Origin: Escherichia coli
GTDB taxonomy: Bacteria; Pseudomonadota; Gammaproteobacteria; Enterobacterales; Enterobacteriaceae
NCBI RefSeq assembly: GCF_003334385.1
Contig: NZ_QOWN01000223.1
Length of the DNA: 244 bases
Reading direction: 5' to 3' (one strand)
Below, piece after piece: positions 1 to 244 of the stretch. Every line of letters begins with the position of its first letter. Within the stretch, counting starts at the first letter, position 1. The notes under the pieces were generated by a model. It was not told the DNA's origin, did not search any database, and was given only the letters and a program-made list of their open reading frames with translations. The position numbers and the translations under genes were made by a program.

Positions 1-134
1 CCGTATGCTTCGGTATCGCTGGCTGTTGCAGTGAAAGGAACCGCCTGCTCAATGTGCTCAAACTTCACCATGCAATTGACAGCAGTGTGATCTTTATCTG
101 CCCATTGCGGATTGCTTATTTTTTCCACATTCAT
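1..134 (-). CDS. Hypothetical protein, N-terminal fragment (5' end present, 3' end beyond window start). The 44 codons seen translate to MNVEKISNPQWADKDHTAVNCMVKFEHIEQAVPFTATASDTEAY. No family recognised.
   Basis: Reverse complement of 1-134 reads ATG AAT GTG GAA AAA ATA AGC AAT CCG CAA TGG ... GAA GCA TAC with no stop through the window edge. The ATG at 132-134 lies 6 nt downstream of an AGGAG Shine-Dalgarno. Amino-acid composition is balanced and protein-like, and codon choice is mostly common enterobacterial-type codons. The codon-aligned + strand frame is Cys/His-rich and looks like an antisense shadow. Confidence 0.7.
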   Translation of the reverse strand, partial: MNVEKISNPQWADKDHTAVNCMVKFEHIEQAVPFTATASDTEAY

Positions 135-140
135 GTTCAT

Positions 141-145
141 CTCCT
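141..145 (-). promoter_or_regulatory. Shine-Dalgarno / ribosome-binding site (AGGAG) for the downstream minus-strand CDS
   Basis: The + strand CTCCT at 141-145 is AGGAG on the minus strand. It sits 6 nt upstream of the ATG at 132-134 and directly abuts the ATG at 138-140. Confidence 0.6.
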
Positions 146-150
146 GTCTG

Positions 151-244
151 TCAGTATGCGCGCTGGAACAGCCCGATGCCTTCATTGTCATTTGTCGACG
201 TAATTTCATTACACACCATCCATGAGCCCGGAACTGAGGATAGT
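151..244 (-). CDS. Hypothetical protein, C-terminal fragment (5' end beyond window end). The 30 codons seen translate to LSSVPGSWMVCNEITSTNDNEGIGLFQRAY, then stop TGA at 151-153.
   Basis: This minus-strand frame is open from the right window edge to the TGA at 151-153 (+ strand TCA). Codon choice (CCG, GGC, CTG, CAG, CGC, ATC, GAA) looks more gene-like than the other two minus frames over the same stretch. The stop lies 16 nt upstream of the SD-preceded ATG of the next gene, a typical operon junction. The frame assignment is not unique (see findings). Confidence 0.45.
   Translation of the reverse strand, partial: LSSVPGSWMVCNEITSTNDNEGIGLFQRAY

Follow-up and report, generated by a model that had tools for sequence, protein, structure and literature searches.

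A DUF4376 protein encoded behind a P2-like prophage tail-fibre gene of Escherichia coli is probably a two-domain tail-fibre assembly chaperone

Position and family of the encoded protein

A stretch of 244 nucleotides (nt) from an Escherichia coli assembly (GCF_003334385.1, contig NZ_QOWN01000223.1), which in its full length is called the window here, contains the junction of two genes read on the minus strand, and the question raised by this locus is what the downstream gene encodes. Its first 44 codons lie in the window, and the original prediction, made from these letters only, left the product unassigned and regarded the two genes as a pair of unknown function. We consider it highly probable that the gene belongs to a P2-like prophage and encodes a two-domain chaperone for tail-fibre assembly, which would correspond in function to P2 gene G and Mu gene U. 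This kind of protein and its ordinary prophage setting are known, and this member is uncharacterised. The analysis leaves the current understanding of phage assembly unchanged and makes a modest addition to it, consisting of evidence for a DUF4376 domain substituting for the classical Tfa C-domain, an F/W-x-R rule for the fibre terminus of this N-domain type, and a mapped exchange unit.

The window is 100% identical to chromosomal DNA of E. coli strain G1/2 (NZ_CP060083; locus L001) and of several further strains. The upstream gene encodes a 532-amino-acid (aa) fibre of the P2 gene H type, for which Pfam gave Phage_tail_fib (the P2 gene H-type N-terminal domain) at residues 1-150, two Phage_fiber_2 repeats, and Collagen at residues 384-439, and which falls into PHROG 988/381 (category tail). 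Hence, the function of the pair is not as obscure as had been supposed. The downstream protein (WP_134880941.1, 200 aa, named "DUF4376 domain-containing protein" in RefSeq) occupies the P2 gene G position, and the 16-nt spacer between the two genes bears out the tight coupling noted earlier. The G1/2 prophage adjoins serS-rarA-lolA-ftsK and carries the complete P2-type late gene set, consisting of portal, terminase, gpO scaffold, P2-family capsid, gpM, X, lysis genes with LysC, V, W, J, I, fibre, tape measure, tube, sheath, D, and ogr. Inspection of the flanks for phage hallmarks, which the original prediction had proposed as a check, thus revealed a P2-like prophage with a full late gene set. 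Among 5,426 complete E. coli genomes the window occurs in 29, chromosomal in every case, and each of the loci examined individually is a prophage or phage, in agreement with the accessory or phage-derived origin that had been speculated. It is often present at multiple places in one genome because several prophages carry the fibre-chaperone cassette; in one genome (IMG 643348545), four viral contigs each carry it. The junction is also ~99% identical in lambdoid phages, namely PhiR5_2 and the P-Eib prophages of ECOR-9, and the PhiR5_2 homologue (85% identical), which likewise lies 3' of a fibre gene, is annotated "tail fiber assembly protein".

A Pfam search with the full-length protein, also put forward earlier, assigned DUF4376 (PF14301) to residues 73-182 (E 2.9e-20). 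This is the sole Pfam match of the protein and lies outside the window, so that the failure to place the N-terminal residues in a family is understandable; it stands for the 44 window residues, which no Pfam model covers, but not for the full protein. PHROG 1141 (category tail) matches the full length (E 2e-79), and further PHROGs cover the C-terminal or the N-terminal part only. A word-index search gave 554 homologues at E <= 1e-5, nearly all of which bear a precomputed PF14301 match and of which the organism-named ones come from E. coli, Salmonella, and Klebsiella; 1,167 representatives of 50%-identity clusters were obtained at E <= 0.001. Relatives are present in 380 sequenced phage genomes, mostly of Pseudomonas phages (those listed are of the ~66-kilobase, Pbunavirus type), under annotations that vary among tail fiber protein, component, and assembly protein. 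The structural neighbours in BFVD are DUF4376 proteins and one tail-assembly chaperone, and all tailed-phage morphotypes are represented. When the family profile was aligned by hhalign with gp27 of the Alteromonas myovirus V22, residues 80-189 of gp27 matched over 110 columns with a probability of 96.9% (E 1.6e-10), and the N-terminal part of gp27 gave no alignment in this comparison; pairwise BLASTP to gp27 was weak (E 2e-4). The protein hence belongs to a named family with experimentally shown fibre chaperones (PMC7289586, PMC10579305, PMC7882524) and can no longer be called unassigned. The tail-fibre-assembly-like protein that had been considered as a guess agrees with the position after the fibre gene, the DUF4376 domain, PHROG 1141, and the homology to V22 gp27.

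Other assignments were tried and rejected. NCBIfam contained no model for the 200-aa protein, and searches of the PDB with the single sequence and with a 118-sequence profile gave chance-level matches only, such as a multi-ubiquitin domain protein (E 0.73) and ribosomal protein eL19 (E 0.19). Membership of the classical family Caudo_TAP (PF02413) was dismissed, as Mu U aligned with the DUF4376 family profile at an hhalign probability of 0.3%; Pfam gave no PF02413 match in the protein, and BLASTP gave no match of the protein to Mu U, Mu U', or P2 G. Gene position and two-domain organisation therefore show a Tfa-like working, not Tfa family membership. Intramolecular chaperone domains are fused to the fibre C-terminus and released by autoproteolysis at a conserved serine; here, by contrast, the protein comes from a gene of its own, which has a Shine-Dalgarno sequence and an ATG and follows the fibre stop.

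The space behind fibre and chaperone genes is also a known site for prophage cargo, as seen for eibC after ORF-191C in P-EibC and for open reading frames (ORFs) with a YadA-anchor-like end, similar to Eib, in two other loci (L048 and L056). ORF-191, the family member of the P-Eib prophages, was moreover described in its original record just as similar to a pMT1 hypothetical protein. These points would suit a "moron" or accessory cargo gene for lysogenic conversion, exclusion, or defence, comparable to P2 Z/fun or the eib genes. The present gene, however, stands between the fibre and the cargo. Its distance from the fibre stop is -4 to 16 nt in most reference phages and 11 nt in the commonest IMG/VR class, and myo-, sipho-, and podoviruses belonging to several genera all keep it there. 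Its relationship by homology with proven chaperones and the natural hybrids described below, in which the N-domain is replaced by that of Mu U / P2 G, also speak against cargo, and PADLOC detected no defence family at E <= 0.1. A cargo role is therefore scarcely probable.

The fold of the protein was modelled by AlphaFold2 on a 118-sequence alignment, with a predicted local distance difference test (pLDDT) score of 97 and a predicted template-modelling score (pTM) of 0.79. The modelled N-terminal unit consists of strands 3-11, 18-25, and 32-37 and helix 43-53, and the C-terminal unit of helix 70-90, β-hairpin 93-104, helix 106-120, two short strands, and a long helix 142-176. The predicted arrangement matches the published architecture of DUF4376 chaperones, which comprises N-terminal strands, a helical body, and a central β-hairpin. 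The part of the chaperone in the window covers the three predicted strands and the beginning of helix 43-53, and contains no signal-peptide-like hydrophobic stretch, as had been stated in the original prediction.

Domain modularity, co-variation with the fibre tip, and the exchanged block

The two-domain logic of Tfa proteins, with a fibre-specific N-domain and a conserved C-domain, was reported by North et al. 2019. An equivalent division was observed here for the family, in which the DUF4376 domain is highly conserved and the N-termini are of unrelated types. Fibre and chaperone were compared at 81 loci (80 from IMG/VR plus L001 and L002, minus one without a usable match). The N-domains were typed by motif; single-linkage clustering at 35% global identity wrongly merged the lambda-Tfa-like type with type A. 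An upstream ORF of at least 300 aa ending -20 to 130 nt from the chaperone start was present at 54 of the 81 loci, which gave 50 distinct sequence triplets, and some of the remaining 27 have their upstream fibre outside this search range. Over the 50 loci, the identity of the fibre tip (last 100 residues) was strongly correlated with that of the N-domain (Spearman rho 0.78) and only weakly with that of the C-domain (0.27). Loci with unrelated N-domains still have C-domains of ~64% identity, and their fibre tips are unrelated (22% identity). Natural hybrids illustrate the same modularity. The N-terminal ~110 aa of P0080, P0092, and P0068 are Mu U / P2 G-like (40-55% identity, E ~1e-20 to 7e-30) and are fused to a DUF4376 domain that is 57-62% identical to that of the query, and P0070 bears, as judged by eye, a lambda-Tfa-like N-terminus on a DUF4376 protein. 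Because of these natural N-domain fusions, DUF4376 occupies the place of the classical Tfa conserved C-domain.

The fibre terminus was found to carry a signature of the N-domain type. At all 33 loci with the N-domain type of the query, the fibre terminates with [G/T]-[L/I]-F-[Q/E/R]-R-x-x, which is seen in none of the 21 loci with other types. Its general form is hydrophobic-F/W-x-R-hydrophobic-x-COOH, and the fibre in the window ends with GLFQRAY, encoded by its last seven codons at positions 154..174 of the minus strand, which constitute the putative docking element. The same pairing of motif and N-domain was observed for four distant phages that belong to different genera and morphotypes, namely phiP27 L56/L57 (SLFVRIA), Pseudomonas phage 109 (TLFQRVT), Aeromonas PVN04 (TLFIRVA), and the podovirus Andromeda (SVWIRVY). 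The partners of Mu U-type chaperones, i.e., P2 H, Mu S, and phiP27 L54, end with ...W-x-N-V-A-x-x.

Two related observations concern the chaperones of these phages. The phiP27 region (L089:1-3064) contains two fibre-chaperone pairs in tandem: L54/L55, with a Mu U-type chaperone and a fibre ending ...NGVWRNVASL, and L56/L57, of which L57 has the N-domain type of the query, is 35.6% identical to it over residues 1-188, and is annotated "tail fiber protein". Chaperones with the same N-domain but of just 117-142 aa (L090:3501-3929, L091:3495-3899, and L092:3465-3818) were found in the Pseudomonas Pbunavirus phage 109, Aeromonas PVN04 (Chaseviridae), and the podovirus Andromeda. The Pbunavirus matches end at about query residue 145, and the short proteins seem to be devoid of the last long helix of DUF4376, which suggests that a shorter C-module can suffice.

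A comparison of the P2-like prophage with the lambdoid phages revealed that the fibre tip and the N-domain are exchanged as one unit. The exchanged block (~570 nt, L001 ~14781-15350) takes in the ~105 terminal codons of the fibre gene, the spacer, and the ~78 initial codons of the chaperone gene, and contains the entire window (1..244, read on the minus strand). In a profile of 40-nt bins this block is mostly 95-100% identical between the two kinds of phage, with one bin at 82%, and beyond it the identity drops to 60-80% downstream (in the chaperone gene) and to ~30-60% upstream (in the fibre gene). The downstream end of the block coincides with the start of DUF4376. In accordance with this boundary, the synonymous divergence (pS) is at most 0.02 for chaperone codons 1-70, as compared with 0.71 for codons 71-186. 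The ratio of nonsynonymous to synonymous divergence (dN/dS) of the C-domain (codons 71-186) is 0.05-0.08, which indicates strong purifying selection.

This conservation bears on whether the protein could instead persist in the mature fibre as a stable structural component, whether as a distal cap or adhesin that remains on the virion and takes part in receptor recognition, as for T2/S16 gp38, or as a permanently bound subunit, as for Mu Tfa. The names "tail fiber protein" and "tail fiber component" given to relatives by PHROG and by many GenBank records would fit such a role, and it was reported that Mu Tfa remains on the fibre tip and that A5 gp9 largely co-elutes with its fibre (PMC7289586, PMC10579305). 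However, the DUF4376 C-domain, which would be expected to face outward, is ~64% identical across unrelated fibre types and evolves at the low dN/dS given above, whereas a receptor-binding adhesin would be expected to show the reverse. In addition, V22 gp27 separates from the fibre on gel filtration and is absent from the final complex (PMC7289586). We thus regard a structural role as unlikely, with a minor share of the probability left to it.

The selection on the family also argues against an ORF that is a decaying remnant in a defective prophage, with no current function. In favour of decay, the copies of PhiR12_1, _2, and _4 are split by an insertion (a transposase and an ATP-binding helper) and some loci have stand-alone N-domain-like fragments. 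At the exact-match locus, on the other hand, an intact 200-aa ORF stands behind a good Shine-Dalgarno sequence in a prophage whose set of P2-type late genes is full, and the model folds at pLDDT 97. Intact copies are also carried by PhiR5_1 and PhiR5_2, which are deposited phage genomes with named propagation hosts. A remnant is consequently a very improbable explanation of the intact copy.

Layout of the window and its prophage carriers

All genes assigned in the window are on the minus strand. Positions 151..244 hold the 3' end of the tail-fibre gene (full gene L001:13496-15094), i.e., its last 30 codons, which end with ...NEITSTNDNEGIGLFQRAY, and the TGA stop at 153..151. The intergenic spacer of 16 nt (135..150), delimited by the two coding sequences (CDSs), contains the Shine-Dalgarno sequence AGGAG at 145..141, located 6 nt 5' of the ATG start codon of the chaperone gene at 134..132. 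The chaperone ORF occupies 1..134 with its first 44 codons plus 2 nt, which belong to the fibre-specific N-terminal domain only; it translates to MNVEKISNPQWADKDHTAVNCMVKFEHIEQAVPFTATASDTEAY, begins with MNVEKISNPQW, and is open to the window edge at position 1. The RefSeq CDS starts at the same codon (L001:15111, corresponding to window position 134), so that the coordinates, the strand, and the 44-residue peptide given earlier are all confirmed. A second in-frame ATG exists two codons upstream at 140..138, which was chosen as the start in the 2000-era P-EibC record, and the minus-strand translation of 140..3 is MNMNVEKISNPQWADKDHTAVNCMVKFEHIEQAVPFTATASDTEAY. This codon overlaps the Shine-Dalgarno sequence and is an unlikely start; the ATG at 134..132 is favoured because of its Shine-Dalgarno spacing.

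The ORF is a real gene and not a chance one, since the identical CDS is annotated in several E. coli genomes, homologues are abundant, and the C-terminal part is under purifying selection. Two plus-strand ORFs of 49 and 37 aa were dismissed, as they are antisense to two well-supported genes. A search of the window against Rfam gave nothing significant. The Mu-gpT-DE small RNA model matched below threshold at 132..156 of the minus strand, which covers the spacer and the ATG (score 16.6 bits, gathering score 49, E 0.17), and was treated as a chance match.

The G1/2 prophage departs from P2 in three regions (L001:7487-9457, 15749-21341, and 23115-23255). A 1,971-nt DUF6645 gene is located between the lysis and tail completion genes, the block from sheath to gpU (the equivalents of FI, FII, E/E', T, and U) is on the strand opposite to that of H and the chaperone gene, and a Hok/Gef toxin gene is located beside ogr at the prophage end adjoining serS. 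Here, the chaperone gene is directly followed by tail genes on the opposite strand. In lambdoid contexts, an apparent cargo gene is located 3' of the fibre-chaperone cassette: L003:970-2484 is eibC, the ORFs at L048:4826-6070 and L056:4907-6028 end with a YadA-anchor-like ...GYRFNEQTAAKAG.AASDGDVSYNVGVNFEF, and L002:9488-10747 at the same position is annotated hypothetical. The upstream fibres contain collagen-like Gly-X-Y repeats, from the short tract of L001 (residues 384-439) to several hundred residues in L056:1681-3477, and these repeats gave weak matches to the bacterial adhesin models Lcl, SclA, and SclB.

In PhiR12_1 (L007:7111-10278), the DUF4376 gene is split after ~codon 31-40 by an insertion (L007:7290-9592) encoding a transposase and an ATP-binding transposition helper, and the same pattern was found in PhiR12_2, PhiR12_2_star, and PhiR12_4. 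Because of this split, the PhiR12 phages match positions 40..244 of the window only, at two places per record. In their records E. coli K-12 MG1655 or E. coli C is given as the propagation host, so that it may be asked whether these phages can do without this side fibre. At L048:3525-3749, a stand-alone 74-aa ORF lies between the fibre and DUF4376 genes and overlaps the start of the latter (ATGA). It resembles, by eye, the N-domain of another chaperone type (P0101: ...YSPSKNMFYP...PCWVDIP), and may have been left over from a chaperone that was displaced, or may act as an adaptor that is expressed on its own.

Proposed mechanism and comparison with known fibre chaperones

Gene position, family membership, domain modularity, co-variation, selection, and the joint exchange of fibre tip and N-domain are shown by the present data; the way in which the protein may work can be inferred from its homologues, whose chaperone activity, docking geometry, and oligomeric state it would presumably share. 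The chaperone would be translated from the late tail operon right after the fibre gene. Its N-domain (~residues 1-65; a three-stranded sheet and a helix) would serve as the fibre-specific adaptor that docks on the C-terminal tip of the cognate fibre, probably via β-strand pairing with the fibre terminal ...G-L-F-Q-R-A-Y. The DUF4376 domain (residues 73-182; a helical body and a β-hairpin) would be a generic module that brings the three fibre C-termini into register, with trimerisation and folding starting at the C-terminus, and it may also transiently cap the tip. We consider the chances for and against this specific docking and registering mechanism to be about even.

Several points weigh against the identification as a chaperone or limit what can be drawn from the data. 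The literature was found to contain no experiments on this protein or on any enterobacterial DUF4376 member. The N-domain adjoins the fibre tip in the DNA, so that co-variation and co-transfer are partly expected from linkage alone, and the loci are mutually related, so that Mantel p-values overstate their independence. The docking role of GLFQRAY is one that we infer. Furthermore, no sequence relation of Mu U to the family profile was detected (hhalign probability 0.3%), so that the parallel with the solved Mu Tfa-fibre complex is drawn from the domain swaps and not from homology.

A more general idea may tentatively be put forward, which we hold to be somewhat more doubtful than the docking mechanism. 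DUF4376 and the classical Tfa C-domain could be sequence-unrelated, interchangeable, generic chaperone modules, and the swappable N-domain could hold all specificity. The N-domain type in the window would then read a tag at the fibre C-terminus, hydrophobic-F/W-x-R-hydrophobic-x-COOH, which would be short and ancient and would have been kept in fibres ranging from those of E. coli P2-like and lambdoid prophages to those of Pseudomonas phages, Aeromonas phages, and podoviruses. If this is true, cognate fibre-chaperone pairs would be predictable from the last few fibre residues, and the fibre tip plus N-domain would be the minimal transplantable unit of host range. Fibre swaps that retarget phages, tailocins, and phage-derived delivery particles often fail unless the cognate chaperone moves too. 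The present data suggest that the piece to be moved along with the fibre tip consists of the ~105 terminal fibre codons and the ~78 initial chaperone codons, and the F/W-x-R motif at the fibre terminus is a simple sequence cue for the choice of a compatible chaperone, which may serve fibre engineering. As for annotation, "tail-fibre assembly chaperone" is the best reading of the E. coli "DUF4376 domain-containing" proteins encoded 3' of fibre genes in prophages, among them the Eib prophage protein ORF-191.

Among the closest known systems are the chaperones of marine Alteromonas phages. The gp27 of myovirus V22 is required for the active fibre gp26 and is not contained in the final complex (PMC7289586). 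The gp9 of Schitovirus A5 co-purifies and co-elutes with its fibre, and AlphaFold-Multimer predicted that three chaperone β-strands pair with the fibre head; its authors proposed a "transient cap" role and a likeness to intramolecular chaperone domains (PMC10579305). As in the query, the genes of both are located immediately 3' of the fibre gene, their products are of similar size (195-239 aa versus 200 aa), and N-terminal β-strands are followed by a helical body with a β-hairpin, which for the query is predicted. V22 gp27 shares a homologous C-terminal DUF4376 domain with the query (hhalign 96.9%, E 1.6e-10), but the N-domains are not alignable, and the V22 fibre gp26 ends with ...SKITVNF, without an F-x-R motif. 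The fibre-plus-chaperone cassette is in both cases common to morphologically different phages. V22 and A5 come from marine Alteromonas, the query from an enteric P2-like prophage. Such dependence on a downstream DUF4376 gene was also reported for the H-fibre of Campylobacter CJIE1, which is functional only when this gene is co-expressed (PMC7882524).

The Tfa family (Mu U, P2 gpG, and lambda Tfa) agrees with the query in genomic position, in size (175 aa), and in having a fibre-specific N-domain with a conserved C-domain, as summarised in PMC7882524; for the Mu Tfa-fibre structure, GenBank AF083977 cites PMID 31209305. The natural chimeras show that a DUF4376 C-domain and the N-domain of Mu U / P2 G work together. 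Unlike the Tfa family, the query is without PF02413 and without a detectable sequence relation to Mu U. Mu U (Tfa) was said to contain DUF4376 (PMC7882524, Discussion and Figure 1 legend); this was not reproduced here, as Mu U gave an hhalign probability of 0.3% against the DUF4376 profile. The confusion may have arisen from the Mu U-like N-domains that occur in nature as fusions to DUF4376 C-domains.

A further close relative is ORF-191 of the ECOR-9 prophages P-EibC, P-EibD, and P-EibE (GenBank AF151674-6), which belongs to the same gene family and has the same N-domain. These records match the window at 99.4% over the part covered, and ORF-191C differs mainly in the C-domain. Unlike the query, ORF-191 is carried by lambdoid prophages with eib adhesin genes downstream, and it was deposited without an assigned function and with a start two codons upstream (MNMNVEK...). 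Finally, DUF4376 chaperones have been reported to be similar to the intramolecular chaperone domains at the C-termini of the K1F endosialidase and the T5 L-shaped fibre. The reported likeness consists of a helical core with β-hairpin "tentacles", for which the same job, performed in trans, has been proposed (PMC10579305).
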